Both the position numbers and the translations under genes were made by a program. Shown here one piece after another: positions 2,740-40,155 of a DNA stretch of 43,433 nt (position 1 is its first letter; each line of letters opens with the position of its first letter). Under the pieces are notes generated by a model. It made no database searches, was not told where the DNA came from, and saw only the letters and a program-made list of their open reading frames with translations. Source of the stretch: Minisyncoccota bacterium. GTDB lineage: Bacteria; Patescibacteriota; Minisyncoccia; Minisyncoccales; UBA5738. The stretch is from NCBI GenBank assembly GCA_025453415.1, contig JALOQL010000002.1:1-43433 (forward strand). The letters run 5' to 3'.

Positions 2740-4584
2740 TCAGTAATTAGGCACCAGACGTTTTAAAGATTCTTTATAGCATGCTTCGTTATCGGCCGCT
2801 GCCGGCCCTTTTACCATCCTCTCCAGTTCCCGCTCCAATGATGAACTGTCCACCTCGGCAAGCCGGGCGACAAAGATCTTGTTGCTCGAAGTCGCCCGCG
2901 CGTTCTCCTGGGCGGTCAACAGCTCCTCGAAAAGCTTCTCTCCCGGCCGGATGCCGATATATACGATCGGGATGTCCTTGTCCGGCTCGAACCCCGATAA
3001 TTTTATCATTTCCTTGGCCAGGTCGAGGATCTTTATCGGCTGGCCCATATCCAGCACAAACACTTCCCCGCCGGCACCCATTGCCCCGGCCTGCATCACC
3101 AAAAGGCACGCCTCGGAAGTGAGCATGAAATAGCGCTTCATTTCCGGATGCGTCACCTCGACCGGCCCGCCCCGTTTGATCTGCGCCCGGAATATCGGGA
3201 TCACGCTGCCGCGACTTCCCAGGACATTGCCGAACCGCACCGAAACGAATCTGGTCTCACCCTTGCCGTTAAGGTACTGGCAAACCATTTCGCCGATCCT
3301 TTTGGTCGCACCCATCACCGATGTGGGATTGATCGCCTTGTCGGTGGAAATGAAGATGAAGTTGCGGGCGCCGTGCTCGATCGCGGCCTCGCCCACGTTC
3401 TTGGTGCCGAATATGTTGTTGCGCACCGCTTCACCCGAGTTGGCTTCCATCAAAGGTACGTGTTTGTAGGCCGCGGCATGGAAAACTATCTGCGGTTTAT
3501 ATTCTCGGAATATCTCAAAAATACGGCCGCGATTCTGGATGTCGGCAACCATGGGCGCGACGCTCAAACCGGGAAAAAATTTCTTGAGCTCGTTTTCCAT
3601 ATTGAAAACGCCGGTCTCGTCCTGGTCCAAAACCACCAGCTTTTCCGGATCGAACTTGGCCACTTGGCGGCACAGTTCGGAACCGATCGAGCCGGCGGCG
3701 CCCGTGATCATCACGGTCTTGCCCCGTATAAACCCGCCGATCATGGCCGTGTCCAAAGATACCTGGTCGCGTTCCAAAAGGTCCTCCACCTCCACCCGGC
3801 GCACGTTGGCCAGCGTGACGTTACCGTTCATGATCTCGGCCATCGGCGGCACGATCTTTATTTTGGAAATGCCGGCTTTCTTCCCAAGCCGCACCGCTTC
3901 TTTGATAAGCTTCGAACCGGACGCCAGGGTGATGATGATCTCCTCGACGCCGTAGCCCGAAACCACCTTGGGAATATCCTCCAGCCGCCCCAGAACCTTA
4001 ATATCGTGGATGATGCTCCCCTGCCGCGATTCGAGCGGATCGACAAAACCCACCGGATGGTAATGGCTGCTTGTCGCGCCGATGATACTGCGCAAAAGCT
4101 GCTCGCCCGTGTCGCCCGCGCCGACGATGAGTATCCGCGAACGGCCTTCGCTGGTCTTGGGCTTGAAAAGGTACAAATAGATCCTTTTGGCAAAACGCAA
4201 GGCGCCGCAAAAAACGAAGATGAAAAATGCCGCGATGAATATGGTCGAACGCGGAAACCCCGAAAACAGGCTAAAATTCTTAAAAACAAAAAGGAGCGCG
4301 ATCTGGGAAAGCAAAGCGATGCCCGTGGCGCGCGTGATCCCGATCAGTTCCTGGGTGCTCACGTAAGACCAGGAAAACGAATACAGGCGGTTCGCGACAA
4401 ACGACGGCAGATAAAATATCCATCCCAGCACCACCAACCGCAGGATGTTTTGGTAATATTGGCCGGGAATCTGGGCCTCGAAACGCACCATGAAGGCCAG
4501 CCAAACCGAAAGGGCGATCAGGATTGCATCGCAAACGAAAAAGAATATCTTTTTATTTTTCGCTAAAACGTTGATTATGCCCAT
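2740..4584 (-). CDS. Membrane-anchored NDP-sugar (UDP-GlcNAc) 4,6-dehydratase, CapD/WbpM/PglF family
   Basis: 614 aa. Hydrophobic N-terminal region, then two Rossmann motifs ILIVGAGDTGEQL and VMITGAAGSIGSEL. FHAAAYKHVPLME covers the YxxxK region. SD AGGAGGGG (rc of 4591-4598) lies 6 nt before the ATG. Confidence 0.9.
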   Translation of the reverse strand: MGIINVLAKNKKIFFFVCDAILIALSVWLAFMVRFEAQIPGQYYQNILRLVVLGWIFYLPSFVANRLYSFSWSYVSTQELIGITRATGIALLSQIALLFVFKNFSLFSGFPRSTIFIAAFFIFVFCGALRFAKRIYLYLFKPKTSEGRSRILIVGAGDTGEQLLRSIIGATSSHYHPVGFVDPLESRQGSIIHDIKVLGRLEDIPKVVSGYGVEEIIITLASGSKLIKEAVRLGKKAGISKIKIVPPMAEIMNGNVTLANVRRVEVEDLLERDQVSLDTAMIGGFIRGKTVMITGAAGSIGSELCRQVAKFDPEKLVVLDQDETGVFNMENELKKFFPGLSVAPMVADIQNRGRIFEIFREYKPQIVFHAAAYKHVPLMEANSGEAVRNNIFGTKNVGEAAIEHGARNFIFISTDKAINPTSVMGATKRIGEMVCQYLNGKGETRFVSVRFGNVLGSRGSVIPIFRAQIKRGGPVEVTHPEMKRYFMLTSEACLLVMQAGAMGAGGEVFVLDMGQPIKILDLAKEMIKLSGFEPDKDIPIVYIGIRPGEKLFEELLTAQENARATSSNKIFVARLAEVDSSSLERELERMVKGPAAADNEACYKESLKRLVPNY

Positions 4585-4607
4585 GGAAAGCCCCTCCTAC
4601 CCAAAAA

Positions 4608-5747
4608 TTATTTTTTAGCTTTTTTCGCCGGCGCGAAGAATTCCCTGACGCAGGCAATGACGTAATCGACTTCGGCGTCGGTAAGCTCCGGATAGATCGG
4701 CAAACGCACCAATTCCTTGGCGATGCGCTCGGTCACCGGCAAATCGAATTGCTCCAGCCCCAGACCCGGCAATTTGTGGTTGGGCGTGGTATCGCGGATC
4801 AGCAGCTCAACATTCTTGGACTGCATGAATTTCTTGAACTTCCAGATGTCGGGAACCTTGATGATGTATTCCTGGAAAATTTGCTGCGGCTGCTGCGTCG
4901 GCAATTCGATGGGCAGGTCTTTGAGCCCCTTCTCGTATTTCATGCCGATCGCCCGACGGCGGCGCAGCATCGCCGGATAGTATTTTATCTTGATGTTCAA
5001 TATCGCGGCCTGGATGTTGTCCAGCCGTGAATTGTAACCCCAATCCATTATTTTAGGCGCCTTGGGCTGGTGCCCCAGCAAGGCATTCTGCGTAATGTTC
5101 CAGTGGTTGCGCAAAAGCAGAAGTTTTTCATAGACCTTCCTGTCGTTGGTGATGATTCCGCCCGCGTCGCCCGCCCCACCCAAAGTCTTGGGGGAAATGA
5201 ACGAGAAACATCCGGTCGCGGCAAATGTCCCGGCTTGTTTTTTACCCAAATAAGCGCCCAGCGCCTGGCAGGCATCCTCAACCACCCACAAATTGTGTTT
5301 TTTGGCGATTGCCATGATCCGGGGCATATCGCAAACCTTGCCCGACAGATGCACCGGCACGATCCCCACGGTTTTTTCGGTAATGAGCCCCTCGAGCAGA
5401 TCGACGTTCATCAACGCGTCCTCGCCCACGTCAATCAATATCGGCTTGGCGCCCAAATGGACAATCTCCTCGATCGGCGCTAAAAACGTGTGCGACGGCA
5501 CGATCACCTCGTCGCCGGGCTTGATGCCCAGCGCCTTGTAGGAGATCTTCAAGGCATCGGTGCCGGAGTTGACGCCGACGGCGTATTTGGCGCCGCAAAA
5601 ATCAGCCAGGTTTTTCTCGAACTTGTCCACGTCCTCGCGCAAAACAAAATCCCCTTTCGAGAAGCATTTGTCCAAGGCCTTTAATATCTGGTCCTTATGG
5701 GCGGCGTAGTAACGGCGGTAACTGGAATTTATAAAATCAACCTTCAT
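4608..5747 (-). CDS. DegT/DnrJ/EryC1/StrS-family PLP aminotransferase (likely 4-keto-6-deoxy sugar 4-aminotransferase, PglE/WecE-like, by context)
   Basis: 379 aa. Motifs: GVNSGTDALKISYKALGIKPGDEVIVPSHTF, EDACQALGA, and the PLP-lysine region FSFISPKTLGGAGDAGGIITND. It sits directly upstream of the 4,6-dehydratase in the same block. A minus-strand TATAAT (rc of 5779-5784) lies 32 nt upstream of the ATG. Confidence 0.9.
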   Translation of the reverse strand: MKVDFINSSYRRYYAAHKDQILKALDKCFSKGDFVLREDVDKFEKNLADFCGAKYAVGVNSGTDALKISYKALGIKPGDEVIVPSHTFLAPIEEIVHLGAKPILIDVGEDALMNVDLLEGLITEKTVGIVPVHLSGKVCDMPRIMAIAKKHNLWVVEDACQALGAYLGKKQAGTFAATGCFSFISPKTLGGAGDAGGIITNDRKVYEKLLLLRNHWNITQNALLGHQPKAPKIMDWGYNSRLDNIQAAILNIKIKYYPAMLRRRRAIGMKYEKGLKDLPIELPTQQPQQIFQEYIIKVPDIWKFKKFMQSKNVELLIRDTTPNHKLPGLGLEQFDLPVTERIAKELVRLPIYPELTDAEVDYVIACVREFFAPAKKAKK

Positions 5748-5809
5748 TTTTTTGTAGGTTATAATTGATTACACTTTGATTATAAGCACAAAATTGATCA
5801 AAAAGAAAC

Positions 5810-5838
5810 TTGACAAAATTAAAAAATGACTGTATTTT
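5810..5838 (+). promoter_or_regulatory. Sigma70-like promoter for the plus-strand orphan gene
   Basis: TTGACA (5810-5815), 17-nt spacer, TATTTT (5833-5838) preceded by TG. AAGGAGG (5854-5860) lies 7 nt before ATG 5868. This is a pattern match only. Confidence 0.45.
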
Positions 5839-5867
5839 CTTGCCAGCGAGCTTAAGGAGGGCTCAAC

Positions 5868-6782
5868 ATGAAGATCTTTAAAACAAAATCATATTCAAAC
5901 CAAGGAACATCTCCGATTAAAGGTGTTCGCATTGTGGATTTAAGCCGAATATTTGGAGTGATTCAGGCCACAAATGAAGTATTTCTTCCTTCAATAGGAC
6001 CTAAAATCAGATATAATGGCCTCACTGGCGCAGAGCTGATGGCGGCGTCGATATTAAGAGATTTAGCCGGTTCGGAGCTTAGCTGCAAGAATATTGATCC
6101 AGTCGCAATACTGACCACGGTAAACCGCAAATTGCGGTCATTGTTACCCAATAAAGAAATGATCACACACACGCCTGCCTTTCTTCCTTACGCAAGATTC
6201 GCCCTGCTGTTTATTAGCGACAACGGCAAAGCCGAGGTCATTGCCGGAGGAGATTGTCAGGCGATTGCCCAAACTACGGAAGGAAAACTTCTTTGGACCG
6301 AAAACCAAGCTGGCCCCTACGATCTCGAGAATTATCGGATAATTGGCCTGCACATGGATGCACAAACAAAGAAATACGCCTCTGAAAATAAAATGGCGAT
6401 AGATGATCTCAAACGAGAAAACATCGAAAAAATCCGTGAAGCGATGTGGAAAAGATTTGCTCCGGAATTAGTTGATCGCCGCAACCGCGCAATCAACTCA
6501 ACTTTCGCTGCGCTCAACGGCAATCTTAGAATCACACAACGCTGGCAAAGATTGCCCTTAGGAAATCTGACCGATATTGAAAGAATTATCTGTTACACCG
6601 GGGGCTTTGTTAATATCGCAGCAACACAAAACATGAGAACCTTGGCGCACAAAATAATCAGCGATTACGATATGCACGGATTGAGATCGACCGTTCAAAC
6701 TGCCCAGAACATGTTCTCTCTCAATTGCCGCATGGCTCATATCACTAAACGTGAGGTTGGTGTAATGGTAATCGAGCCATGA
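5868..6782 (+). CDS. Hypothetical protein (orphan; faint, degenerate SpoIIE/PP2C-like resemblance)
   Basis: 304-aa ORF and the only plus-strand gene, with a strong SD. Hand-counted G+C is 21/60, 29/60, 21/60 and 25/60 on lines 5881, 6001, 6361 and 6601, versus 32/60 (line 3601) and 34/60 (line 7021) in the flanks. Weak PP2C/SpoIIE-like strings: NGLTGAELMAASILRDL, ARFALLFISDNGKAEVIAGGDCQAI, IICYTGGFVNI and C-terminal EVGVMVIEP. Several expected metal-binding Asp residues are not conserved. Confidence 0.6.
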   Translation: MKIFKTKSYSNQGTSPIKGVRIVDLSRIFGVIQATNEVFLPSIGPKIRYNGLTGAELMAASILRDLAGSELSCKNIDPVAILTTVNRKLRSLLPNKEMITHTPAFLPYARFALLFISDNGKAEVIAGGDCQAIAQTTEGKLLWTENQAGPYDLENYRIIGLHMDAQTKKYASENKMAIDDLKRENIEKIREAMWKRFAPELVDRRNRAINSTFAALNGNLRITQRWQRLPLGNLTDIERIICYTGGFVNIAATQNMRTLAHKIISDYDMHGLRSTVQTAQNMFSLNCRMAHITKREVGVMVIEP

Positions 6783-6816
6783 AGCTCCGAAACTAACACT
6801 TTTTGAGCTTTTTCTA

Positions 6817-7692
6817 TTACATAAGGCCAAAATGCCGGAGAACTTCCAGGATGCCGTTTTGGTCCACGTGCGGGCCGATGAAATTACGTTCTTTGTCGCG
6901 CCTTGAGACATTTTCCAAAACCTGCGGCACCGCATTTTCCAGCGTGGCGCGATAGCCGCAAAGCTTCATGAATTCCCAATCGACAACGCCATCGCCCGCG
7001 CCCAGAACATTCTCGAACGGAATACCCATATCGCCAATCAATCGCTCCAAACCGGTGGCCTTTGATATGCCCGCGGGCCCGAAAAAACCATAATGATATC
7101 CTTCCAGGAATAAATTATTTCCCCACAGCAAATTCAACCGGCCGCTAAACCCTCGGTAAATCCTTTCCATCGCTTCTTTGGCGCCGCTTTCTTTTGACTC
7201 GCCGGAAACATACAAAACATTTTTGCCGCAAACCGCTTCGACCAGGGATTCGACCGCTTCCGGCGTGATCTGCACCGACGCGGACAATAATTGGTTTATT
7301 TTGTTCCCCGCCTGGTCTTCTTGGACAAAGTAGCTTTCGGGAGTGAAGAAATTGGTAACGATCCCCTCTTGTAGCAGCTGCTGCACCAATCGCGACGAGT
7401 CCTCCTGTGAAACCGTTTTACATTCAAAAATTTCCCCCGACAGCGGGTTCATCGTCAAGCTGCCCATGTCGCCGATATGAAAGTTATTCAAATTCGCTTC
7501 TTTGATGATTGCGGCATTCGTCGGCGCGTAAAACGGCCGGCCGGTGCACAAAATCACCGGGGTCCCGGATTCTTTAATATTTTTTAGCGCGGCGATTATC
7601 TCCGGGCAAGGATCGGGAAAATTTTTTCCGCCCTTGAACCCGACCAGGATTCCGTCAACGTCCAGGACCACCGCCCGTATTTCGGACTTCAT
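6817..7692 (-). CDS. HAD-superfamily phosphatase, Cof/HAD-IIB type
   Basis: 291 aa. Motif I VVLDVDGILVG (DxD), LCTGRP, GISKATGL and GAGDGVVDWEFM, with a large cap insertion between motifs II and III. Confidence 0.85.
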   Translation of the reverse strand: MKSEIRAVVLDVDGILVGFKGGKNFPDPCPEIIAALKNIKESGTPVILCTGRPFYAPTNAAIIKEANLNNFHIGDMGSLTMNPLSGEIFECKTVSQEDSSRLVQQLLQEGIVTNFFTPESYFVQEDQAGNKINQLLSASVQITPEAVESLVEAVCGKNVLYVSGESKESGAKEAMERIYRGFSGRLNLLWGNNLFLEGYHYGFFGPAGISKATGLERLIGDMGIPFENVLGAGDGVVDWEFMKLCGYRATLENAVPQVLENVSRRDKERNFIGPHVDQNGILEVLRHFGLM

Positions 7693-8378
7693 GTTTTGGA
7701 AAAATAATTATTCAAAATCGCGGCCACCCGTTCCTTGAATTTCAGTTGATCGGTGATATTATTATCGACTTCCAAAGCGATCACTTCCCCGAATTCGCCT
7801 TTGGGCAATGACGATAAGTAATTGAAATCTTTCATGTCTTTGACGAAATGGACATCGTGATCGCCGATTTGGGAATAACCGCCCAAATGATTGCTGGAAA
7901 CTTTCGTGCCTTTGCGGGAGAGAATATAAAAAGCTTCGCCGGCGCCGCGGCTTATCGCCGCTTTCAAATGGGCCAGATCAACACAAAATCCGCCGATCTT
8001 TGAAACGTCGACATTCGCCGCGATCCGGTCGTCATAGTTCATTTCCAGGTATAATTTATCCCAATAACCCTGCCACCGGCTTAAAATATCAAAATTGCTT
8101 TCGTGAACATTGAAAAACTTCGTTTTGAATTTGTTGATGAAAAAATCGATTTCGGAGGCATCGGCATCGTGGCGCAAATGAACCAGCGGCACCGATTTGA
8201 TGCTTGATCTTAAAAGCGCGGCGTATAATTTATGCCGTTCGCCCCTTTCGAGCCTTTCTACGAAAACGGCGGCGGCGGCGATCCCCTGCCGGTTTATGTC
8301 GCGAACCTTGCGCCGCCAGCCGGAACCCTGCCCGGTGACGCTCACAAATATTCTTTGTTTAAAATCGATTTCTTCCAT
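7689..8378 (-). CDS. Hypothetical protein (possibly a metal-dependent TIM-barrel-like enzyme)
   Basis: The track ORF 7689..8561 overlaps the EamA gene by 172 nt in another frame. The first ATG clear of it is 8378 (MEEIDFKQRIF...), 11 nt after the EamA stop. It has a 4-nt ATGA overlap with the HAD gene. 229 aa with scattered H/D/E-rich strings HLRHDAD, NVHES, VDLAHL and NHLGGY. Family not recognised. Confidence 0.6.
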   Translation of the reverse strand: MEEIDFKQRIFVSVTGQGSGWRRKVRDINRQGIAAAAVFVERLERGERHKLYAALLRSSIKSVPLVHLRHDADASEIDFFINKFKTKFFNVHESNFDILSRWQGYWDKLYLEMNYDDRIAANVDVSKIGGFCVDLAHLKAAISRGAGEAFYILSRKGTKVSSNHLGGYSQIGDHDVHFVKDMKDFNYLSSLPKGEFGEVIALEVDNNITDQLKFKERVAAILNNYFSKT

Positions 8379-8389
8379 GGCCGGATTGG

Positions 8390-9241
8390 TTAGATCATGA
8401 TTATTATCAACCCCGCGGTCACGCCCGCGATACCCAGGCTTTTCTTCCGCGTTAGCTCGTCGCCGAAAAGCTTGACCGCCAGCAAGCTGATGATGGCCAC
8501 ATTGGCAATATGGATCGCGTTGACATAGCCCATGTTGGGCGCGTGCGTGAAGGCGTTCCACATGAAAATGTTGCCGAATCCCGAAGCAACGCCCATCAGC
8601 AGGAGCGGTCCCGCCTGTTTTTTATGGTCCAGAATGTTAATTTTGCGCAACATGGTCTCAGCATAAAAAAACGATAGCGACAACAGCATCGACCAGAACA
8701 AAAATACCAGCTGGTTTATCCCCGCCAACGTCGCGTATTTCACCGTAATCGATAACGCCGCGTAGGCAAAAAACGCCCCGAAAGAATATTTGGCCCAATG
8801 CCGGCCCGTTGCCTTTCTTTTCCCTTTTTCATTAGCCAAGATCAATAATTGGCTCGCTAAAATAAGCGCCACGCCGGCAATCTTGGCCCACGAAAACTCC
8901 CCGCCAAAAAGGAAAATGGATGCGGCTAAAGTGATCACCACATAGCTTTTGACGATCGCGGTACTATAACCGGGATTCGGGGCGCGATTGAACCCCCGGA
9001 TGCTGGAAGCGTTGCCGGCATAAATGCAAACCGCGGCGAAAACAACCAAAAAATATGCTCCCGGCGCCGATGTTCCAATTCCGGTGGCCGCGCCCGCGAC
9101 GAGAAAAACCAAAACCGCCACCGCGTAAGTGGCGAAATTGATCACTGAAAACGGCACGCCCGCGCGCCAGGTGGTCTTGCCGAGAACCTGCGTCAAAACG
9201 AAAAACATCAGCGCTAGCAAACTCTCGACAACCCAATTCAT
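8390..9241 (-). CDS. EamA/DMT-superfamily membrane transporter (two EamA halves, about 10 TM)
   Basis: 283 aa and almost entirely hydrophobic spans. There are two homologous halves, each carrying APNPGYSTAIVKS or APNMGYVNAIHIA. 4-nt overlap with the E1-beta stop. Confidence 0.85.
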   Translation of the reverse strand: MNWVVESLLALMFFVLTQVLGKTTWRAGVPFSVINFATYAVAVLVFLVAGAATGIGTSAPGAYFLVVFAAVCIYAGNASSIRGFNRAPNPGYSTAIVKSYVVITLAASIFLFGGEFSWAKIAGVALILASQLLILANEKGKRKATGRHWAKYSFGAFFAYAALSITVKYATLAGINQLVFLFWSMLLSLSFFYAETMLRKINILDHKKQAGPLLLMGVASGFGNIFMWNAFTHAPNMGYVNAIHIANVAIISLLAVKLFGDELTRKKSLGIAGVTAGLIIIMI

Positions 9242-10233
9242 AGGCTCATCGTTTTTTTAACCGCCGCGACTATTTGCTCAGCCTTGGGATAATAAGCCGC
9301 CTCAAGCGAACGGCTGGCCGGCGCCGGACAATCCGGCAAACAGACTTTTTCTATCGGCGCCTTCAATGTATATACTTTTGTATATACATGAGTATATACT
9401 CGGCAAGCGATTTCCGAAGAGACGCCAAAACTCTGCCAGGCGCCTTCGGCGATCACCAGGCGGCCGGTCTTTTTGACCGATCCCAGGATCAGCGGCATAT
9501 CAAGCGGTTTTATCGTGCGCGGGTCGATCACTTCGATATCGATTCCCTCTTTTGCCAAAATTTCGGCGGCCTTCAATGCCTCGGGCACCAGATATGATAT
9601 CGCGACCACGGTCGCGTCGGAACCGTTGCGCAGTAATTTTCCTTTGCCGATCGGCACTTCATACAGTTCTTCGGGAACCTCCTCCTCCAGGCCGTAAAGC
9701 CAGCGGTCATCCAAAAAGACCACCGGGTCCGCGTCGCGCACCGCGCTGACCAACAGCCCCTTGGCATCGTAGGGACCGGACGGCATCACCACTTTCAGGC
9801 CCGGCGCGTGGGCGAAGATCGCCTGGATCGCCTGCGAATGCTGGGCGGCCTGCTCGCCGCCGCGGTTGATTATTCCCCAAAACACCGCCGGCACATTGGA
9901 ATTGCCGCCGGCCATATAGCGCCAATTGGCCGCGCCGTTGATGATCGCGTCCAACGCGTAAAACATGAAATCCAAACGCGGATAGTTCATTACGGGTTTC
10001 AGTCCGTTCATCGCGCTGCCGGCCGCCACGCCGCTCATCGCGTTTTCGGAAATCGGCGTATCAATGACCCTTTCTTCGCCGAATTCCTGGATCAGGCCGT
10101 TGCAGGTATTGCCCACGTACCACGGGCTCTTCACCCCCTGGCCGATCACAAAAACCGCCGGGTCGCTTTCCATAAGCTGGCGCAAGGCTTCGTTGATCGC
10201 CAAACCAAATTTCAATTTCCTATTCGAAGACAT
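9238..10233 (-). CDS. ThDP-dependent 2-oxoacid/acetoin dehydrogenase E1 component, beta subunit
   Basis: 331 aa. Motifs: VFVIGQGV, RVIDTPISENAMSGVAAGSAMNGLKPV, VVMPSGPYDAKGLL, EVIDPRTIKPLD. These fit the Transket_pyr + transketolase_C architecture. Confidence 0.9.
   Translation of the reverse strand: MSSNRKLKFGLAINEALRQLMESDPAVFVIGQGVKSPWYVGNTCNGLIQEFGEERVIDTPISENAMSGVAAGSAMNGLKPVMNYPRLDFMFYALDAIINGAANWRYMAGGNSNVPAVFWGIINRGGEQAAQHSQAIQAIFAHAPGLKVVMPSGPYDAKGLLVSAVRDADPVVFLDDRWLYGLEEEVPEELYEVPIGKGKLLRNGSDATVVAISYLVPEALKAAEILAKEGIDIEVIDPRTIKPLDMPLILGSVKKTGRLVIAEGAWQSFGVSSEIACRVYTHVYTKVYTLKAPIEKVCLPDCPAPASRSLEAAYYPKAEQIVAAVKKTMSL
9368..9399. repeat. Three phased copies (12-nt period) of the palindromic octamer GTATATAC inside the E1-beta gene
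   Basis: gtatatac at 9368-9375, 9380-9387 and 9392-9399, separated by tttt and atga. On the coding strand this encodes VYTHVYTKVYT. Confidence 0.9.
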
Positions 10234-11191
10234 GTTTTTGCAAATCGCTTACGACCGGCCGCGGACTGTCGATCGCGTATTCCTGCGCTTTTTTAACTTT
10301 TTCGGTAATTTCCTGCTTCACGGTTTCCAATTCGTCCTTGTCAAAAATTTTGTTTTCCAATAAATATTTTTCAAACCGCATTACCGGGTCTTTCGCCCGC
10401 CATTCATCAACTTCCGCTTGCGGCCTGATATCGGTGTGCTGGCCCTGAATATTGTCATCCGGCCCCACGTGGCCGCGCATACGATACGTCAATGATTCGA
10501 TGAAATACGGCCCGAGACCGGCGCGGCAATGTTTGGCCGCAATCTTGGCGGCTTCGTAAACTTTCAAAATATCGTTACCGCCAACTTGCGCCGCCGCGAT
10601 ACCGAACGGCTCTGCTATTTTATAAAGAGGAATGCCGGGCCGGCACTCACGAATGTGAAGGTGCGTGGAGTACAGGTTGTTTTCGCAAACAAAAATTACC
10701 GGCAGGCATTTCAACGCCGCAAAATTAAGCGATTCGTAGATTATCCCTTCGCCCGCCGCGCCATCGCCAAAAAACGTCGCGGCGATCTGGCCGTTTTTCT
10801 TGATCGAATCCGCCAGCGCCGCCCCGACCGCCATCGCCACGGTCTGGGAAATTATCGGCGCCGAACCCATAAAATTGCAGTCTCGCGCCATAAGGTGCAT
10901 CGAACCGCCCCGGCCGCGGCTGCAACCGGTTTCCTTGGTATAGATCTCGGCCAGCATCCGGTTGAGGTCTCCCCCCTTGGCCAGATAATGGCCGTGGCCC
11001 CGGTGGTTCGAAAACACCTGGTCGCCGCTTTCCAGCGCGGCGCACACGCCCACCGCGGACGCTTCCTGGCCGGTATACAAATGGCACGGGGTTTTCACCT
11101 CGCCCTTCAATATCGGGTCGATCAGACATTCCTCGGCCAGCCGGATCGTCAGCATCTTCCGGTACAAATTTTCCAAAAATGATTTTTCCAT
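10220..11191 (-). CDS. ThDP-dependent 2-oxoacid/acetoin dehydrogenase E1 component, alpha subunit
   Basis: 323 aa. Motifs: HRGHGHYLAKGGD, GRGGSMHL, and the ThDP-binding GDGAAGEGIIYESLNFAALKCLPVIFVCENN. 14-nt overlap with the beta gene. Confidence 0.9.
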   Translation of the reverse strand: MEKSFLENLYRKMLTIRLAEECLIDPILKGEVKTPCHLYTGQEASAVGVCAALESGDQVFSNHRGHGHYLAKGGDLNRMLAEIYTKETGCSRGRGGSMHLMARDCNFMGSAPIISQTVAMAVGAALADSIKKNGQIAATFFGDGAAGEGIIYESLNFAALKCLPVIFVCENNLYSTHLHIRECRPGIPLYKIAEPFGIAAAQVGGNDILKVYEAAKIAAKHCRAGLGPYFIESLTYRMRGHVGPDDNIQGQHTDIRPQAEVDEWRAKDPVMRFEKYLLENKIFDKDELETVKQEITEKVKKAQEYAIDSPRPVVSDLQKHVFE

Positions 11192-11263
11192 TTTTTCTAC
11201 TAAAAACCCTGACCTAACTTTTTAAAATAATATTTTTTGGAGCATTATTTTACGCGGTCGGCC

Positions 11264-11299
11264 AAAAATACTAGGAAATTCGCCAGCCGGCGAATTTCC
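11264..11299 (-). terminator. Candidate intrinsic terminator after the initiating sugar transferase gene
   Basis: Perfect 11-bp stem ggaaattcgcc (11274-11284) / ggcgaatttcc (11289-11299) with a 4-nt loop. On the minus strand it is followed by TAGTATTTTTGG (T5 run at 11264-11268). It lies 35 nt after the stop at 11334, inside the only long (142 nt) gap among the co-directional genes. Confidence 0.45.
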
Positions 11300-11333
11300 G
11301 TGCTCCGCGAAAATGTTATTTTAAAAATTTAGA

Positions 11334-11927
11334 TCACTTAAAAACCTTTGCGATCGTCAAAAAGATTATCTTGATGTCGGTAAACAGCGATTTTTCCTTG
11401 ACGTATTTTTTTTGCAGCTCCAGTTTTTGGGGCCGGATAAGCCTCTGGTAGGCTTCCTCCGGGTCCTTGGCCCCTTTCAGCGCTTCCCCTTCATGGAAGT
11501 TCCAAAGGGACGCGTAATCGGTCATTCCCGGCCTCACGGACAAGATAACATCTTTTTCTTCCGGCGTCATCATATCCACATACATTTTCACTTCCGGCCG
11601 CGGCCCCACCAGGGACATCTGGCCTTTCAAGACGTTTATCAATTGCGGCAGTTCGTCCAGCTGGTATTTTTTCAGGAAGTTGCCGATGCGGGTCAGGCGC
11701 GGATCGTCGCTCGAAGTGGACGGCCCGCCCATTTTGTCGGCATCCACGACCATGGTCCTGAATTTTAACATTTTAAACGGTTTGCCGTTTTTGCCGACGC
11801 GCTCGCCCATGTAGAAAACCGGCCCGCGGTCATTGGCCTTTATCTTGGCCGCGACAAACAAAAACACCGGCGACAAAATCGCCAACCCCAAACCCGAACC
11901 CAGGATATCGATCAATCTTTTTATCAT
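11334..11927 (-). CDS. Small monotopic polyprenyl-phosphate sugar-1-phosphate transferase (Bac_transf; PglC/WbaP-C type initiating enzyme)
   Basis: 197 aa. N-terminal helix LGLAILSPVFLFVAAKI, then GKNGKPFKMLKFRTM and DELPQLINVLKGQMSLVGPRPE. Confidence 0.9.
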   Translation of the reverse strand: MIKRLIDILGSGLGLAILSPVFLFVAAKIKANDRGPVFYMGERVGKNGKPFKMLKFRTMVVDADKMGGPSTSSDDPRLTRIGNFLKKYQLDELPQLINVLKGQMSLVGPRPEVKMYVDMMTPEEKDVILSVRPGMTDYASLWNFHEGEALKGAKDPEEAYQRLIRPQKLELQKKYVKEKSLFTDIKIIFLTIAKVFK

Positions 11928-12706
11928 TTTATCGGACCGGTAAATTCAAACACGACCTTGAACGCGTATTTTTTCAAAAAAGGGATTTTCAAAAACAAGC
12001 GGTCGAACGGCTCGGCAACGTCCAGCAGCAGCCTTCCCCACGGCCGTCCGGAAACCGGAAAGAGCACCCAGTCGAACAAATGGAAATATTCAACATGTAC
12101 CTGCGTAAAATATTTTCTTGCCAAGGCAACGCCTTTCTCGTTGAAAATGTGGCTCGCGGCCCAGGCCGTGCGCTTCCCCGACCGGACATTACGGGCGCGG
12201 TTGGCGTTCGCCAGCGGGTTATGGCCGAAAGTTTCTATACCTATCAACATTCCGCCGGGACGCAGGATGCGCGCCATCTCCGGAAACGCTTTTTCGATAT
12301 CGATCGAAGAAAAGGTGCCGCCGTCAAAAATCACATCGAAACTATTGTCCGTAAAATCGGTTTTCTCGCAATCCATTTTCAAGAAACCAACCGTACCGTC
12401 CGATCCGGACGCCGCCGCATTTTTTTGGGCCGCTTCAAGCAATTTATCCGACAGGTCAATGCCCAGCACGCTTTTGACTCCCATTTTGCCGATCGGCATC
12501 GTGTGGACGCCATTGCCGCAACCCCAATCCAAAACCTCTTTGCTCATGCAATTTTTTTCCAATAATTCATGGGCGCGGCGAAAGCTGGACAGCCGCAACG
12601 GCTTGAATCCCTCGAAATCGACGGGTTCGCCCGCCCCGAACTCCGGAATCGCGGCACTGCCGGCCTGTTCGTAATATTCGATCTCTTCAGTTTTTCTGTC
12701 TTCCAT
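11924..12706 (-). CDS. Class I SAM-dependent methyltransferase
   Basis: 260 aa. Motif I VLDWGCGNGVHT, GIDLSDKLL, FDVIFDGG, LRPGGMLIGIE. 4-nt overlap with the downstream gene. Confidence 0.85.
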   Translation of the reverse strand: MEDRKTEEIEYYEQAGSAAIPEFGAGEPVDFEGFKPLRLSSFRRAHELLEKNCMSKEVLDWGCGNGVHTMPIGKMGVKSVLGIDLSDKLLEAAQKNAAASGSDGTVGFLKMDCEKTDFTDNSFDVIFDGGTFSSIDIEKAFPEMARILRPGGMLIGIETFGHNPLANANRARNVRSGKRTAWAASHIFNEKGVALARKYFTQVHVEYFHLFDWVLFPVSGRPWGRLLLDVAEPFDRLFLKIPFLKKYAFKVVFEFTGPIK

Positions 12707-13715
12707 GTTTTTCGGGAAACGATAATTTAATGATACCCCATACCGAGCCGAAACCGTAGCCGAAATGCCGCGCCGCGAATGCCGGCGGCAGCAATAACGC
12801 CAAGTACGGATCCCTTTCCTTTATAGCGGTTGCCATTGAAATTAATAATGAAAGCGCCAGGTAACCCGCGGCCAGTCCGGCCAGCAAATATGATGCCGGG
12901 TGCCAGAATAACGCGGCCGCGGCCAGTCCGGCCAGCAGTATCATGAAAAACAGCGGCGCGTAGTGGCGCGGCCTTAAAGGCATTTTCATGAATTTTAACG
13001 GATAAACCGCCCAGACGCCATCCCAAAAATTGTGGATAAAGAAATCCTTCAGGCTATCTTTGGGAAAATAGCCGACCACAATATCGGGATACAGCATGAT
13101 CCGGCCGCCGGCCTTTTTAAGCCGCATATTGAATTCCATGTCCTGGCTGCGTTTGAGCCGCTCATCAAACAAGCCAACCCGCCCGAAAACCTCTCTTTTA
13201 TAACAGCCGCCGAAAACCGTGTCCACCGCCATCGGCGCCGCAACCTTTTTGGTCTTGTAGTAGGCATTACCGGAACCAAACGCCGAAGATATCGCCTTGG
13301 CAATCGCCGCGGCCGCATGCTTGCCGTGTTGGGCGCGGATTTGGACAATGCCGCCGACATTGTCCGATCCCGATTCCTGCGCATGGATAACGCACTTGGA
13401 AATATAATCTCGGTTGTATCCGGCATGGGCGCCCATCATGATGATGTAATCGCCTTTCGCGGCGCGAACCCCGATATTGAAAGCGCTGGGAGTGAATTTT
13501 TTCGGATTTTCCAGCATCCGAACCAATGGATATTTATCGGAATAATTTTTAATTATCTCCCGGGTCTTGTCGGTGCTCATCCCGTCCACCACCATGACCT
13601 CGAAACGGTCGCGCGGATAATCCTGGTCCAAAACCGTTTCCAGGCATTTGCCCAGGAAACGCTCTTCATTCCGGCACGGAATCACTATTGAAACTAGGGG
13701 CAGGGTTCTTTCCAT
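12687..13715 (-). CDS. GT2-family glycosyltransferase with C-terminal membrane helices
   Basis: 342 aa. Motifs: VSIVIPCRNEERFLGKCLETVLDQDYP, VVDGMSTDKTREI, DTVFGGCYKREVF, QDMEFNMRLKKAGGRI, followed by several hydrophobic spans. It is a paralog of 16008..17018. Confidence 0.9.
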   Translation of the reverse strand: MERTLPLVSIVIPCRNEERFLGKCLETVLDQDYPRDRFEVMVVDGMSTDKTREIIKNYSDKYPLVRMLENPKKFTPSAFNIGVRAAKGDYIIMMGAHAGYNRDYISKCVIHAQESGSDNVGGIVQIRAQHGKHAAAAIAKAISSAFGSGNAYYKTKKVAAPMAVDTVFGGCYKREVFGRVGLFDERLKRSQDMEFNMRLKKAGGRIMLYPDIVVGYFPKDSLKDFFIHNFWDGVWAVYPLKFMKMPLRPRHYAPLFFMILLAGLAAAALFWHPASYLLAGLAAGYLALSLLISMATAIKERDPYLALLLPPAFAARHFGYGFGSVWGIIKLSFPEKHGRQKN

Positions 13716-14428: not shown

Positions 14429-15334
14429 TCAAGCGGCCTGTCGGATTATACGGGCCGGGTTCCCGACCACCACCGCGCCGGCGGGCACCGATTTCAGCAC
14501 CACGGCGCCAAGCCCCACCGTAACCCGGTCGCCGACAACTATGCCGTTCATGATCGAGCTGTTGGGCGCGATCCAGCAATCGGCGCCGATCCGGGCGCTG
14601 CCGCACACCGCCGCGCCGGCGATAACCAGGGTCCGGGCGCCAATTTTGACATTATGGGCGACAAACACATTATCGTCAATTTTAACGTTGTCGGCGATCT
14701 CGGTGTCCGCAAGCGTGCCGCGGCAAATAACGCTGTTGGCGCCGATTTCCACATTATCGCCGATCACCACGCCGCCCAAATGCTTCAGAGGAAAAGGGAT
14801 CCGGTTTTCATCGCGTTCAAAACCAAAACCTTTCTGGCCCACCACCGCATTGGATTTAATGACCGTATTTTTGCCGATCCGCACGTTATCGGCAACGACC
14901 GCGCCGGCCATGACCACCGAACCGTCGCCGATGGCGACATTTTTTCCGATGACCGCGTATTCGCCAATGACAACGCGGCCGATCCGGCAACCCTCGCCGA
15001 TCAGCGCGGTGGGATGGATCTTGACTTCGAATTCCGGGGGCGTAAGGCGTTGGATCAATTTCGCAAACGCCAGCCGCGGATTTTGAACAACGACATAAGC
15101 CCGGCCGTTCTTTTGCGGCAATGTTGCGCCGCGGCGGCAAACCACGATCGAAGCGACGCTCTGCTCCAGAAACCGCGCCGCTTCTTCTCCCTGACGGCTG
15201 CAAAAGCAAAGCGATTCCCCGTTGGCGCGGTCAATGGGCAGGAAATTTGAAAAAGTCGCGGCCGGGTCGCCCTGAATTTCGATCTGCTCGCCGGCCAGAA
15301 CCTCTCTGACCGAATCCAATGTGTGTTTTTCCAT
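14429..15334 (-). CDS. LpxD-architecture left-handed beta-helix N-acyltransferase (nucleotide-sugar amine N-acyltransferase)
   Basis: 301 aa. The N-terminal domain resembles the LpxD uridine-binding domain (GDPAATFSNFLPIDRANGESLCFCS...ASIVVC). Hexapeptide repeats follow, with GQKGFGFERDE...VVIGDNVEIGANSVICRGTLADTEIADNVKIDDNVFVAHNVKIG. The LpxD C-terminal helical extension is absent. Confidence 0.85.
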   Translation of the reverse strand: MEKHTLDSVREVLAGEQIEIQGDPAATFSNFLPIDRANGESLCFCSRQGEEAARFLEQSVASIVVCRRGATLPQKNGRAYVVVQNPRLAFAKLIQRLTPPEFEVKIHPTALIGEGCRIGRVVIGEYAVIGKNVAIGDGSVVMAGAVVADNVRIGKNTVIKSNAVVGQKGFGFERDENRIPFPLKHLGGVVIGDNVEIGANSVICRGTLADTEIADNVKIDDNVFVAHNVKIGARTLVIAGAAVCGSARIGADCWIAPNSSIMNGIVVGDRVTVGLGAVVLKSVPAGAVVVGNPARIIRQAA

Positions 15335-15344
15335 GGTTTTCGCG

Positions 15345-15989
15345 CTAACGAATCGTCCATTTCACGACCTGGAAAGTTTCGGCGTATTCGGCATCGCCGC
15401 TCTGGCCCCCCCGGACTTTGGCCAGGCTGGAAATGAAATCGGGAGACATGTAAAAACGGTTCCCCTGCGATTTATAGCACGCAAGCGCGGCAATCTTCTT
15501 GTCCAGATCGCTTTTCCCAAGTACCACAAACGATTCGGTCTCAAAAGTCAGATTGTTCCAAGGGAGCTCATAGCCCAGAATGCTCACCTGGGTACCCTTG
15601 AACGCCCTCAAACCTTCTTGATACATGACTTGATGGTCCTGATGCACGTCAAAAACCGAAGGCAGCATCACAATGCCCGGATCGATCTTTCTCTTCAATC
15701 CGATCAGGTCGTCGAGGATTTGCTGGCGATGTCCGGGAAAATTCCTGACCGGATAATTGAAAAGGATAAGGTTTTCCGGCTTTAACCCCAAAATCCGGGT
15801 CGCTTCGCGCACTTCGGTTTTCAGGATATCGCGGGGAAATCCCGGCGGCACGGATTCGTCAGCCGAGGAAAAAGCCGCGTAAAACACTTCCTTGCCCTCC
15901 CGGATGAATTTGGCAATGGCGCCGCCGCAGCCCAATTCGCCGTCATCGGTATGGGGACATATTATCAATATTTTATCAAATGAATCCAT
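15345..15989 (-). CDS. PIG-L/LmbE-family N-acetyl-sugar deacetylase
   Basis: 214 aa. ILIICPHTDDGELGCGGAIAKF (PHxDD) and VFDVHQDHQ (HxDH) zinc-binding motifs. Confidence 0.9.
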   Translation of the reverse strand: MDSFDKILIICPHTDDGELGCGGAIAKFIREGKEVFYAAFSSADESVPPGFPRDILKTEVREATRILGLKPENLILFNYPVRNFPGHRQQILDDLIGLKRKIDPGIVMLPSVFDVHQDHQVMYQEGLRAFKGTQVSILGYELPWNNLTFETESFVVLGKSDLDKKIAALACYKSQGNRFYMSPDFISSLAKVRGGQSGDAEYAETFQVVKWTIR

Positions 15990-22396: not shown

Positions 22397-23604
22397 TGTT
22401 TTTCCCGCGCCGTTATCAGCTTCATCAGCTGCGCCGCGTTTTTTCGGGAATTGAACTCGCAATCGACCTTGGCCATACCCGCTTTCCGGATGGTCTCAAT
22501 ATCGATCTTCCCGTCAATTATGTCGCCAATAGTCCGGCCAAGCGCCGCCGCATCCTTTTCGGGCACGATAATCCCGGCGCCGCCGCCCAGCAATTCGGCA
22601 ATCCCGCCGGTATTGGTGGAAACGGCCAACACGCCATAGGCCATCGCCTCCATGAGCGAAACCGGAATCCCCTCGTGGCTCCCGTCGTTGGTATTGATGC
22701 TCGGGAGAATGATCACGTCGGCTTGGCCTTTTTCGTAAATTTCCATGATCGAATTGTGGGGAGCGGCGCCGCAAAACTCAATGCAATCCCGTAATCCCCT
22801 CAATTTTACCTGCCGCACCAACTTTTGCTTCAAATGACCGTCGCCGAAAAACCGGCATTTTATCCTCTCCCTCTTTTGCGGATCCAGCCGGCCGATGGCG
22901 TCGATCAGGTACCGGTGGCCCTTAACGTCGATAAGGTTGGCCGGCACCACGATTGCCAGCCGGCCGCCCCGATTCGCAATAGGCGGCAAGGTTTCAGGAA
23001 TGCTCACTCCCATATGGATCATCTTCAGCCGGCCTTCGAATTCGTTGCCGATGATCTTGCTCAAACCGCCCTTTCCCAGCTGCGAAATGCACCGCACGAA
23101 CGCCGCCGACCGGACTTTCTGGCGCAAAATATTATTCTCGGTGATATCCCACCGGTGAAGCGTGAAACTCCAGGGTATCCCGGTCATTTTCGAAATTACA
23201 AACGCCATCGTGGCCGTCGTTGTCCCCCAATGGGCGTGAATATGGCCCACATCCATCTTCCGGATTGTCCGCGCGACAAAGACCGCTTTGGGAAAGACTG
23301 CCAGGTTCTTCATCGCGATCACCAGATTGCGCGACGAGGCCACGATCGTAACGATCGTGTCCCAAAGAATCCGGTGCGAAAACAACATCTTGATAAAGTA
23401 AACCATCATTTGCCCGCTTATCAGCGGGGTCCAGATCGCGTTCTTGATGAGGTAACGGCCTTCCTTATGGAAAATATCCTCGGGCGGGTTGCGGGCGATT
23501 ATCAAAAAATCACCGCCCAAACGCTGGATGTCCAGCATCTCTTCGAAAATGAAGGCTTCGCCCTTGCCCCAGGGGGTTTGCGCGGTGATAAAAATCGTTT
23601 TCAT
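22393..23604 (-). CDS. GT4-family glycosyltransferase
   Basis: 403 aa. GSHEGIPVSLMEAMAYGVLAVSTNTGGIAELL (E-x7-E region). 4-nt overlaps on both sides. Confidence 0.85.
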   Translation of the reverse strand: MKTIFITAQTPWGKGEAFIFEEMLDIQRLGGDFLIIARNPPEDIFHKEGRYLIKNAIWTPLISGQMMVYFIKMLFSHRILWDTIVTIVASSRNLVIAMKNLAVFPKAVFVARTIRKMDVGHIHAHWGTTTATMAFVISKMTGIPWSFTLHRWDITENNILRQKVRSAAFVRCISQLGKGGLSKIIGNEFEGRLKMIHMGVSIPETLPPIANRGGRLAIVVPANLIDVKGHRYLIDAIGRLDPQKRERIKCRFFGDGHLKQKLVRQVKLRGLRDCIEFCGAAPHNSIMEIYEKGQADVIILPSINTNDGSHEGIPVSLMEAMAYGVLAVSTNTGGIAELLGGGAGIIVPEKDAAALGRTIGDIIDGKIDIETIRKAGMAKVDCEFNSRKNAAQLMKLITAREKQ

Positions 23605-35279: not shown

Positions 35280-36362
35280 TTATCTTGCGGACGCCATTTT
35301 TTCGAGCATGGCGGTTATCCTGCCGGCGGCATTGCCGTCCCCGAATTCATTGCCGGGGCGAGTTTGCGGCACCGGGGCGGCAATGGCCTTTTCCATCTTG
35401 CCAATATCCGTCCCCGCCAAAGTGTTCCATCCCGCGGCCACAGTTTCCGGCCAGCAATTTTCTTCCAAAAGAGTCACGCAGGGAACTTCGGTCCAATAGG
35501 CCTCTTTTTGGATGCCGCCGCTGTCGGTAACGATCTTTTTAGCTCCGGATTGAAGCGCCATCATGTCCAGATAACCGACCGGATCGATAAGCTTGATGTT
35601 TTCCGCCGGCCGAATCTTGTTTTTATCCATTGCGGCGCGCGTACGCGGATGGACCGGGAAAACCGCCGGCCCGGTATTGGCAAGCGCTCCCAGGATCCGG
35701 CCCAAAACCGCCGGATCATCCACGTTCTGAGGCCGGTGGATCGTGACCAGCAAATATGTATTTTTTGCCAGCCCGGTTTTTTCGATGATCGTCGAATTGT
35801 CGGCAAAACGTTTTCCGCGCCGGAAAGAATCATACATCAGATCGCCGACGTTATGCGCCCGCTCGCCCAGGCCTTCCCGTTCCAGATTGGCCACCGAAGA
35901 TCGGACCGGGCAAAAGAGCGCGTCCGAAACATGGTCGGCCACCAGCCGGTTGATCTCTTCGGGCATCGCCCGATTGAAAGCGCGCGGCCCGGCTTCGATA
36001 TGGGCAACCAGTATATGCATTTTTGCCGCCACCAGGGCGCCGGCAAGTGTGGAATTGACATCCCCCACCACCGCCACGATATCCGGCGTTTCTTTTTGCA
36101 AAACCTCTTCGATCGCTTCCATCATCCTGGCCGTCTGGCGCGCATGCGTGTCCGAACCGATACCCAGGTTGTAATCCGGTTTGGGAATTTCCAGGTCCTG
36201 GAAAAAAACCTGCGACATCTCATAGTCGTAATGCTGGCCCGTATGGACCAAGACCGGTAAAAAATCAGGATGGTTTCGCCATTGCCAAAAAAGAGGCGCG
36301 ATCTTTATGAAATTCGGCCGCGCCCCCACGACAATGGCAATCTTTTTTTTGTTATCCCCCAT
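35280..36362 (-). CDS. wecB: UDP-N-acetylglucosamine(-uronate) 2-epimerase, non-hydrolysing (WecB/WbpI family)
   Basis: 360 aa. Motifs: IAIVVGARPNFIKIAPL, VHTGQHYDYEMSQVFFQDLEIPKPDYNLGIGS, VVGDVNSTLAGAL, DSGGIQKEA. Confidence 0.9.
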   Translation of the reverse strand: MGDNKKKIAIVVGARPNFIKIAPLFWQWRNHPDFLPVLVHTGQHYDYEMSQVFFQDLEIPKPDYNLGIGSDTHARQTARMMEAIEEVLQKETPDIVAVVGDVNSTLAGALVAAKMHILVAHIEAGPRAFNRAMPEEINRLVADHVSDALFCPVRSSVANLEREGLGERAHNVGDLMYDSFRRGKRFADNSTIIEKTGLAKNTYLLVTIHRPQNVDDPAVLGRILGALANTGPAVFPVHPRTRAAMDKNKIRPAENIKLIDPVGYLDMMALQSGAKKIVTDSGGIQKEAYWTEVPCVTLLEENCWPETVAAGWNTLAGTDIGKMEKAIAAPVPQTRPGNEFGDGNAAGRITAMLEKMASAR

Positions 36363-37458: not shown

Positions 37459-37467
37459 AATCGATTA

Positions 37468-37896: not shown

Positions 37897-37923
37897 AAGA
37901 TTGATCCTCGCCTCTTGCGATAA

Positions 37924-38775: not shown

Positions 38776-38788
38776 ATTAAAATTGATT

Positions 38789-40151: not shown

Positions 40152-40155
40152 ATGA

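Follow-up and report, generated by a model that had tools for sequence, protein, structure and literature searches.

The 43,433-nucleotide stretch analysed here (the window; contig JALOQL010000002.1 of assembly GCA_025453415.1, a Minisyncoccota bacterium) carries a large glycan locus in which two adjacent genes encode the alpha and beta subunits of a thiamine diphosphate (ThDP)-dependent enzyme resembling the E1 component of pyruvate dehydrogenase (PDH) or acetoin dehydrogenase. Comparison of their sequences and genomic contexts suggests, with a probability that we put at roughly 0.6, that this E1 pair is a carboligase of the alpha-KADH2 type acting on a keto-sugar within a conserved surface-glycan cassette, and not a dehydrogenase. 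The pair would have left the dehydrogenase complex, and the module around it would produce the lipid-linked sugar with which a surface glycan begins. An earlier note on this DNA had likened the pair to AviB1/AviB2 of avilamycin biosynthesis and proposed a two-carbon (C2) branching step; the analogy is apt, the kind of enzyme being already known, and C2 branching is the best-supported role for the pair, since both subunits fall in a clade confined to sugar biosynthesis together with a Pau11/Pau12-type pair.

E1 subunits in a sugar-associated clade

Relationships were examined in distance-based neighbour-joining trees of 87 E1 alpha and 80 E1 beta sequences, derived from tblastn matches and open reading frames (ORFs) and assembled without AviB1, KbDH and AlmDI themselves. 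Contexts were classified from the ORFs called and clustered in 83 loci with E1 alpha relatives, which gave three classes: cassettes with a polyprenyl-phosphate phosphoglycosyl transferase (PGT), a DegT aminotransferase and a PglF-type dehydratase (class A), heptose-type sugar clusters with GmhA-like SIS, RfaE-like, radical S-adenosylmethionine (SAM), short-chain dehydrogenase/reductase (SDR) and DegT genes (class B), and classical operons of E1 alpha, E1 beta and E2, with or without E3 (class C). The trees split classes A and B cleanly from class C. The resulting sugar clade comprises 35 of the 87 E1 alpha sequences, including that of the window (bootstrap 60/60), and the E1 beta tree shows the same bipartition with the same support (60/60). 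In a first set of 73 sequences, the sugar clade was recovered in 98/100 replicates and the sub-clade of the window in 99/100. Genes for E2 or E3 were found within about 6-7 kb of none of the 35 sugar-clade members, as against 38 of the 52 sequences outside the clade, whereas a DegT gene was present in the locus of 19 of the 35 and of none of the 52 others. Identity of the window E1 alpha to E2-linked E1 alpha proteins is 37-43%. In agreement with what had been reported for the window, no lipoyl/2-oxoacid_dh (E2) or dihydrolipoyl dehydrogenase (E3) gene was detected by Pfam among its 41 annotated ORFs of at least 150 residues, which cover the non-overlapping gene set of the 43 kb.

The sugar clade also contains a sequence from a Streptomyces genome (L052) whose neighbours encode an ADIC-synthase-like protein, a DesVIII-like P450, an EryCIII-like glycosyltransferase, an NDP-hexose 2,3-dehydratase, a 3,5-epimerase and EF-G. 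Because these neighbours match the paulomycin cluster table, the locus is assigned by context to a paulomycin-type cluster and its E1 genes to a Pau11/Pau12-like pair. In paulomycin biosynthesis, pau11 and pau12 encode the homologues of AviB1/AviB2, knockout of pau11 abolishes production (PMC4425429), and the proposed role of both genes is to add the two-carbon branch in paulomycose (PMC4425429; PMC4753412). For the phylogeny that the earlier note had asked for, the split from E2-linked E1 proteins and the grouping of both subunits with the Pau11/Pau12-type pair (60/60) were borne out, in neighbour-joining trees that lack AviB1.

A second, deeper branch of the sugar clade lies in heptose-type clusters (L018, L021, L024, L030, L033, L037, L043, L046, L061 of Pelagibacter, L062 and L078). 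These clusters encode a GmhA-like SIS protein together with an RfaE-like kinase/transferase, SDRs and DegT, with radical SAM genes often on both sides of the E1 pair, which suggests ThDP-dependent branching or chain extension of heptose-derived sugars.

Judged by its conserved residues, the window pair should be catalytically competent, since the ThDP motif (GDG...ENN) and the catalytic GH of E1 alpha, as well as the cofactor-activating Glu (E63) and the QHSQ His (H132) of E1 beta, are kept in universally conserved columns. Profiles for dehydrogenase subunits fit less closely: E1 alpha scores 307.5 against TIGR03182 (PDH E1 alpha, cut-off 393.85) and 206.3 against TIGR03181 (cut-off 411.35), while E1 beta scores 314.9 against the equivalog NF008854 (cut-off 454) and barely reaches the broad subfamily NF006667 (322.6 vs 321). 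The differences specific to the clade were listed from the alignment. In E1 alpha, they consist of an insertion of 5-6 residues directly after the catalytic GH (window residues 249-254) and an invariant G243; the insertion aligns to the human E1 alpha segment HGHSMSDPGV, a phosphorylation loop that lines the lipoyl channel. In E1 beta, the GEDV of E2-type proteins is replaced by G-Q/E-G-V (GQGV in the window, with G33 100% conserved), R86 and R177 are invariant, R124 is 97% conserved, and a Glu found in 100% of E2-linked E1 beta proteins is missing (G264 in the window). The clade-specific arginines of E1 beta would suit a nucleotide-diphosphate substrate.

Within the E1 beta gene of the window, the 8-bp palindrome GTATATAC occurs in three copies at 12-nt spacing (9368-9399), with no further copies in the window; 0.13 copies are expected, and three were reached in 0/100 shuffles. 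The copies encode VYT-H-VYT-K-VYT and lengthen the protein by 3 residues compared with all relatives, perhaps through a small tandem duplication; alternatively, they may form a protein-binding or restriction-type site.

The conserved cassette and the limits of the unit

The genes on which the comparison of loci rests, all on the minus strand, are listed below in the order in which they would be transcribed.

12687-13715, minus strand: GT2 glycosyltransferase with two C-terminal transmembrane (TM) helices and a GtrB/ArnC/DPM1-like architecture; PF00535
11924-12706, minus strand: class I SAM methyltransferase, 260 residues; Methyltransf_11/25
11334-11927, minus strand: small monotopic PglC-like PGT, 197 residues; PF02397, E 5.8e-60
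11192-11333, minus strand: intergenic gap of 142 nt from PGT to E1 alpha, with a terminator-like hairpin (11299-11274)
10220-11191, minus strand: E1 alpha-like ThDP subunit, 323 residues; PF00676, E 1.3e-70
9238-10233, minus strand: E1 beta-like subunit, 331 residues; Transket_pyr and Transketolase_C
8390-9241, minus strand: EamA/DMT membrane protein, 283 residues; PF00892, two repeats
7689-8378, minus strand: 229-residue ORF without recognised family, ATG at 8378
6817-7692, minus strand: Cof-type HAD-IIB phosphatase, 291 residues; PF08282, motif I DVDG at residue 11
4608-5747, minus strand: DegT/PseC-type sugar aminotransferase, 379 residues; PF01041, E 1.2e-87, PseC being the best NCBIfam match
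2740-4584, minus strand: membrane-anchored PglF/CapD-type UDP-HexNAc 4,6-dehydratase, 614 residues; Polysacc_synt_2, E 7.6e-118

Hydropathy gave a single N-terminal hydrophobic helix for the PGT and peaks at residues 253-295 for the GT2 protein, and the 4,6-dehydratase also matches the PseB-type dehydratase domain (E 1.4e-56). The five ORFs between 6817 and 11191, their families (Pfam/NCBIfam) and the overlaps of 14 nt between E1 alpha and E1 beta and of 4 nt between E1 beta and EamA are as the earlier note had described them; in addition, the 229-residue ORF overlaps the HAD gene by 4 nt and follows the EamA gene after 11 nt. According to the Pfam annotation, the glycan locus further includes GT1, GT2 and GT4 glycosyltransferases, a Wzx-like flippase, Wzz, three DegT genes, a WbpA/B/D/E/I-like set, methyltransferases, a radical SAM gene and an amidotransferase.

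The earlier note had treated these five genes as a separate unit, a view that was compared with the content of 10 related E1 loci and five EamA loci. The E1 loci include metagenome contigs with E1 alpha identities to the window of 77% (L007), 73% (L090), 70% (L091) and 62% (L092), a Parcubacteria locus (L009, 61%) and the complete genome of a Thermodesulfovibrio (L008, 59%); further loci come from a species-level genome scan with a single E1 alpha query, a biased sample in which mostly distant E1 proteins stand among the matches listed. The set that recurs in the relatives consists of the SAM methyltransferase, the small PglC-like PGT, E1 alpha, E1 beta, DegT and the PglF-like 4,6-dehydratase, often flanked by GT2 upstream and Wzz downstream. 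E1 alpha is preceded directly by the PGT gene, at 54-84% identity, in L007-L011, L015 and L090-L092 (with an aldo-keto reductase gene intervening in L092); in L016, L017, L026 and L094, the PGT gene is found inside the cassette. The methyltransferase gene is immediately upstream of the PGT in L007, L009, L010, L090 and L092, and belongs also to the cassettes of L008, where DegT precedes the PGT, and L091, where an SDR does. GT2 is kept upstream of the cassette in L007, L009, L010, L011, L015 and L091, DegT directly follows E1 beta in L011, L012, L013, L016 and L092, and the PglF-like dehydratase is part of the cassette in L007, L008, L009, L011, L026, L090, L092 and L094.

The six genes are found together, among the matches listed, in Paceibacteria-like members of the candidate phyla radiation (CPR), Saccharibacteria, Omnitrophota and Thermodesulfovibrio, as well as in Nitrospira, Actinomycetota, Planctomycetota and Terriglobia, and the order E1 alpha-E1 beta-DegT is also seen in Dehalococcoidales and a Nitrososphaeria archaeon. 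In the relatives, the E1 pair is thus welded to an upstream PGT and methyltransferase and to a downstream DegT and PglF-like dehydratase. On these loci, a unit of E1 alpha, E1 beta, EamA, the 229-residue protein and HAD was rejected, the E1 pair alone being conserved together. As to co-occurrence with glycan loci, a check that had been suggested for the whole block, the clade of the E1 pair was found only in sugar-biosynthesis contexts, and the five-gene block itself is not conserved. For annotation, it is of note that tight packing with overlaps, as seen in a single genome, was no guide to a functional unit here: only two of the five genes are conserved together.

The start of the supposed block had been set by the gap before E1 alpha. 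This gap is indeed the sole one above 35 nt between neighbouring same-strand genes from 2740 to 37458, and it contains a hairpin with an 11-bp stem (GGAAATTCGCC/GGCGAATTTCC), a 4-nt loop and a T-rich tail (TAGTATTTTT). It is not the rule among the six relatives read, five of which were counted as having E1 alpha begin 0-4 nt from the end of the PGT gene or overlap it. The two genes adjoin or overlap in L007 (PGT stop/E1 alpha start 9998/10001), L008 (10004/10001), L009 (9996/10001) and L091 (7997/8001), 104 nt separate them in L090, and in L092 the aldo-keto reductase gene is placed between them. Because most relatives are without the gap, it is read together with its hairpin as a local feature of the window that marks no module boundary.

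Predicted pathway and competing explanations

C2 branching with subsequent tailoring and transfer is proposed because the cassette supplies matching partners, namely a dehydratase, an aminotransferase, a methyltransferase and a PGT. The PglF-like dehydratase would convert a uridine diphosphate (UDP)-activated N-acetylhexosamine (HexNAc) to UDP-2-acetamido-2,6-dideoxy-4-hexulose. The E1 pair would then decarboxylate pyruvate and add the hydroxyethylidene-ThDP carbanion to the keto carbon, leaving a C-acetyl branch on a tertiary alcohol. DegT and the SAM methyltransferase would tailor the product, the branch ketone perhaps being transaminated as in kibdelomycin, and the small PglC-like PGT would finally load the finished sugar-phosphate onto polyprenyl phosphate. 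In L092, the aldo-keto reductase (7036-7965, directly before E1 alpha), whose best NCBIfam match, below cut-off, is the YdjG methylglyoxal reductase, may reduce the branch ketone; it parallels Pau7, the ketoreductase acting on the paulomycin branch. The pyruvate donor, the 4-keto sugar acceptor, the order of the steps and the placement of branching on the nucleotide sugar as opposed to after transfer are inferred. The (phospho)sugar acceptor of the earlier note appears less likely than a nucleotide-activated 4-keto-6-deoxy-HexNAc, and for the dephosphorylation and export that it placed after branching, gene adjacency is the sole support.

This chemistry has precedents. Pyruvate is the source of the C2 acetyl branch that enzymes of the alpha-KADH2 alpha/beta class attach to keto-sugars, at C3 or C4, in the biosynthesis of aldgamycin, kosinostatin, kibdelomycin, paulomycin, trioxacarcin and avilamycin, KbDH-alpha/beta carries out ketone carboligation in vitro, and the branch ketone is later reduced, methylated, oxidised or transaminated, the last in kibdelomycin (PMC12247030). 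The AviB1/AviB2, Pau11/Pau12, AlmDI/DII and KbDH systems share with the window separate alpha and beta subunits, no E2 or E3 and the proximity of a 4,6-dehydratase, and their tailoring partners are alike (here an aminotransferase and a methyltransferase, with a reductase in L092). However, they belong to actinomycete antibiotic clusters and act on deoxyhexoses activated by thymidine diphosphate, whereas the window type forms a distinct sub-clade (99/100) and is found in surface-glycan loci of CPR and many other phyla, its scaffold would derive from UDP-HexNAc (PglF-type dehydratase), and its genes adjoin that of an initiating PGT resembling PglC and, in the lineage of the window, that of EamA. 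YerE/ErwE-type enzymes, which serve the branched lipopolysaccharide sugars yersiniose, erwiniose and caryophyllose, represent the same proposed chemistry in surface glycans, with a ThDP-bound acyl anion transferred to a nucleotide-activated 4-keto-6-deoxy sugar that is then reduced or otherwise tailored (PMC9306805). The YerE-like enzymes, of which YerE itself is described as a flavoprotein, nevertheless belong to the single-chain decarboxylase (acetolactate-synthase-like) superfamily and use cytidine diphosphate-activated 3,6-dideoxy sugars; they are not E1 alpha/beta heteromers. In one review, branching in lipopolysaccharide is assigned to YerE-like enzymes and alpha-KADH2 to secondary metabolites (PMC12247030). 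A parallel to the cassette as a whole is the PglF-PglE-PglD-PglC module (di-N-acetylbacillosamine, AAT-type), with which it shares the 4,6-dehydratase, the DegT aminotransferase and the small PGT at the initiating end, whereas the place of the PglD acetyltransferase is taken by the E1 pair and the SAM methyltransferase.

Several points weigh against a carboligase. The trees are neighbour-joining trees only, built on one biased genome sample. With a 4-keto acceptor, moreover, DegT cannot aminate C4 of that sugar and would need the branch ketone or a second sugar, although by sequence (NCBIfam) it resembles an ordinary C4 aminotransferase of the PseC/LegC/ArnB type. The E1 pair also occupies the PglD place of the bacillosamine module, so that N-acylation fits equally well by position. 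A narrower form of the proposal, in which DegT turns the C2 branch on UDP-4-keto-6-deoxy-HexNAc into a 1-aminoethyl group and the reducing-end sugar becomes a C-branched amino sugar of a type so far only known from kibdelomycin, is tentative and less likely than not; it would describe a widespread, hitherto undescribed module class ranging from CPR to Terriglobia, with a heptose-type form in Pelagibacter.

Among the alternatives, replacement of PglD is the one that draws most on this position. The E1 pair would pass a pyruvate-derived acyl group as acyl-ThDP to the amine of a UDP-4-amino-4,6-dideoxy-HexNAc in a bacillosamine-like pathway. It stands exactly at the N-acetyltransferase place of PglF-PglE-PglD-PglC modules, the C4-aminotransferase-like DegT comes directly after E1 beta in many loci, and no PglD-like hexapeptide acetyltransferase gene was detected in the Pfam tables within 8-10 kb in five of five loci (L007, L008, L009, L090 and L092) or at 2740-13715 in the window. 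Oxidation of hydroxyethyl-ThDP to acetyl-ThDP, however, needs a two-electron acceptor, while the cassette is without a lipoyl, FAD or ferredoxin domain. There are many strict anaerobes among its carriers, all members of the alpha/beta class characterised so far form C-C bonds (PMC12247030), and the window has its own LpxD-like N-acyltransferase about 3 kb upstream. We regard such N-acylation as unlikely. A genuine PDH or acetoin dehydrogenase E1, with E2 and E3 elsewhere in the genome and a fortuitous position in the glycan locus, is far less probable still. The best matches among solved structures are human and bacterial PDH E1, E1 beta just passes the NCBIfam PDH E1-beta subfamily cut-off, and the fold, the ThDP motif and the catalytic Glu and His are shared and intact. 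Nevertheless, E1 alpha falls well under both PDH equivalog cut-offs, both subunits lie in a separate clade with no nearby E2 or E3 in any of its 35 members, the same gene order recurs in unrelated phyla beside PGT, DegT and PglF-like genes, and the pair differs from dehydrogenase E1 by the alpha insertion, the altered GEDV and the loss of the Glu that is invariant in E2-linked beta subunits.

A pathway of all five genes, with ThDP-dependent acyloin formation on a phosphosugar, isomerisation by the 229-residue protein, dephosphorylation by HAD and export by EamA, would account for their tight packing and overlaps on one strand after the hairpin gap; sugar isomerases and epimerases share the fold of the 229-residue protein, and EamA and HAD are adjacent again in L007 and L095. 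It is largely refuted by the comparative data and very improbable. The gene for the 229-residue protein is present in no related E1 locus and stands alone among housekeeping genes elsewhere, its product keeps the full nine-ligand set of endonuclease IV, HAD is missing from L090, L094, L008, L009 and L092 and EamA from L008, L009, L011 and L092, and most relatives have no gap in front of E1 alpha.

The searchable literature gave nothing relevant on E1 pairs located in loci for O-antigen or capsule, or carried by CPR, although an earlier description is possible, and the alpha-KADH2 class as a conserved part of PglF-DegT-PGT modules, its spread over phyla and the heptose-type clusters were not found described there. 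If carboligation by the pair is correct, E1-like ThDP carboligases would extend beyond actinomycete antibiotics, and branching of the first envelope-glycan sugar would be common in many uncultivated lineages, which predicts new branched (amino)sugars in the surface glycans of CPR and others. It would also explain "PDH E1" genes in genomes without a PDH complex, which may be misread in metabolic reconstructions, and would provide new ketone-accepting carboligases for biocatalysis.

Accessory genes and other features of the window

The EamA protein scores above the PF00892 cut-off (42.5 vs 28.2) in two stretches. The 10 TM segments given in the earlier note agree with the two EamA repeats and with a multi-pass protein, several hydrophobic segments being spread along its length; the crude hydropathy scan does not give an exact count. 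The coupling to E1 beta that had been proposed is likewise seen in the closest relatives, where the EamA gene again overlaps the end of E1 beta by 4 nt (L007/L093 and L090; in L094, too, EamA comes after E1 beta), but it does not extend to the E1 loci named above as lacking EamA. EamA is thus a lineage-restricted accessory membrane protein of the cassette, confined to one sub-lineage, and possibly a transporter or flippase. An assignment as ArnE/F-like flippase is without NCBIfam support and stays speculation.

The HAD protein exceeds the PF08282 cut-off (80.2 vs 20.9) and lies below that of the TIGR00099 Cof subfamily (65.8 vs 137). Only six homologues at E<=1e-20 were obtained in a search of 5.8 billion proteins, the gene comes after EamA in no locus but those of the window, L007/L093 and L095, and its more remote homologues are placed behind an RmlD-like SDR in loci that lack E1. 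It is therefore a rare, loosely linked accessory, and not the unit member that had been supposed. Cof phosphatases include a phosphatase of hydroxymethylpyrimidine pyrophosphate (HMP-PP). Thiamine salvage, with HAD as HMP-PP phosphatase and EamA as vitamin transporter, was rejected, as the NCBIfam match is weak (9.7e-5, well below cut-off) and the linkage is not conserved.

The 229-residue ORF has no Pfam or NCBIfam match at E<=0.01. Its 142 homologues, none with a name beyond hypothetical protein, belong to Nealson-, Portnoy-, Staskawicz- and Buchananbacteria and to Nanoarchaeota/DPANN, and measure 214-260 residues, mostly 219-240, a range because of which the ATG at 8378 was preferred to a longer ORF starting with GTG. 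In three of three long CPR/DPANN contigs (L001, L003 and L005), the gene is stand-alone among gyrase, UvrD, Obg and ribosomal-protein genes. An AlphaFold model (AF2, 40-sequence alignment; pLDDT 91, pTM 0.90) matched xylose isomerase, E. coli endonuclease IV and tagatose-epimerase-like structures of the PDB in Foldseek (E 8e-5 to 9e-4, TM-scores of about 0.5), the endonuclease IV matches having E values of 1.8e-4 to 4.1e-4. The residues H67, H92, E112, D134, H137, H164, D175, H177 and E203 are invariant or nearly so and lie at the C-terminal ends of successive strands of the model. In order and local motif, they parallel H69, H109, E145, D179, H182, H216, D229, H231 and E261 of E. coli Nfo, with positions read off the translated K-12 gene (CVDLAH/CIDTCH, ALEVDN/ILETIN and HDVH/VDRH in the 229-residue protein and Nfo, respectively). 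These nine Nfo residues are the ligands of its trinuclear metal site. The two proteins thus share a TIM-barrel fold and an H-H-E-D-H-H-D-H-E pattern, whereas the window protein is about 55 residues shorter and without a Pfam AP_endonuc_2 match. A profile of the family gave no match among PDB sequences, hhalign against Nfo gave a probability of 1.9% over 25 columns covering the D-x-x-H segment only, and a viral fold search added nothing. On the strength of the model and the ligand pattern, the protein is probably a compact endonuclease-IV-like enzyme and a passenger in the operon; a role as sugar isomerase of the pathway was rejected in view of the stand-alone gene in the long contigs and the endonuclease IV ligand set. 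The family may represent the missing apurinic/apyrimidinic endonuclease of many reduced CPR/DPANN genomes.

Between HAD and DegT, a 304-residue ORF lies on the opposite strand (5868-6782, plus strand), with no match in Pfam or NCBIfam. Its place and direction are shared by homologues in L007 (40%) and L097 (31%), and in L009 an opposite-strand gene with a faint PP2C_2 match is found at this point. The 304-residue ORF may encode a regulator or a phosphatase that is embedded in the cassette.

The LpxD-like N-acyltransferase (14429-15334, minus strand), which reaches the NCBIfam LpxD subfamily cut-off (220 vs 207) and not that of the equivalog, adjoins a PIG-L family de-N-acetylase (15345-15989, minus strand). 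The host probably belongs to CPR and would hence be without lipid A, which suggests that the glycan may contain an amino sugar with an N-acyl group, possibly that of a fatty acid. At the edge of the WbpA/B/D/E/I-like block (35280-41478), a 3-hydroxybutyryl-CoA dehydrogenase-like gene (37924-38775, minus strand) follows a gap of 465 nt (37459-37923); its product might provide an amino sugar with a 3-hydroxybutyryl N-acyl group. Finally, a 779-residue ORF (23601-25940, minus strand) combines N-terminal Polysacc_synt (Wzx-like flippase) segments with a C-terminal GT4/GT1 domain and is either an unusual fusion or two genes joined by a frameshift.

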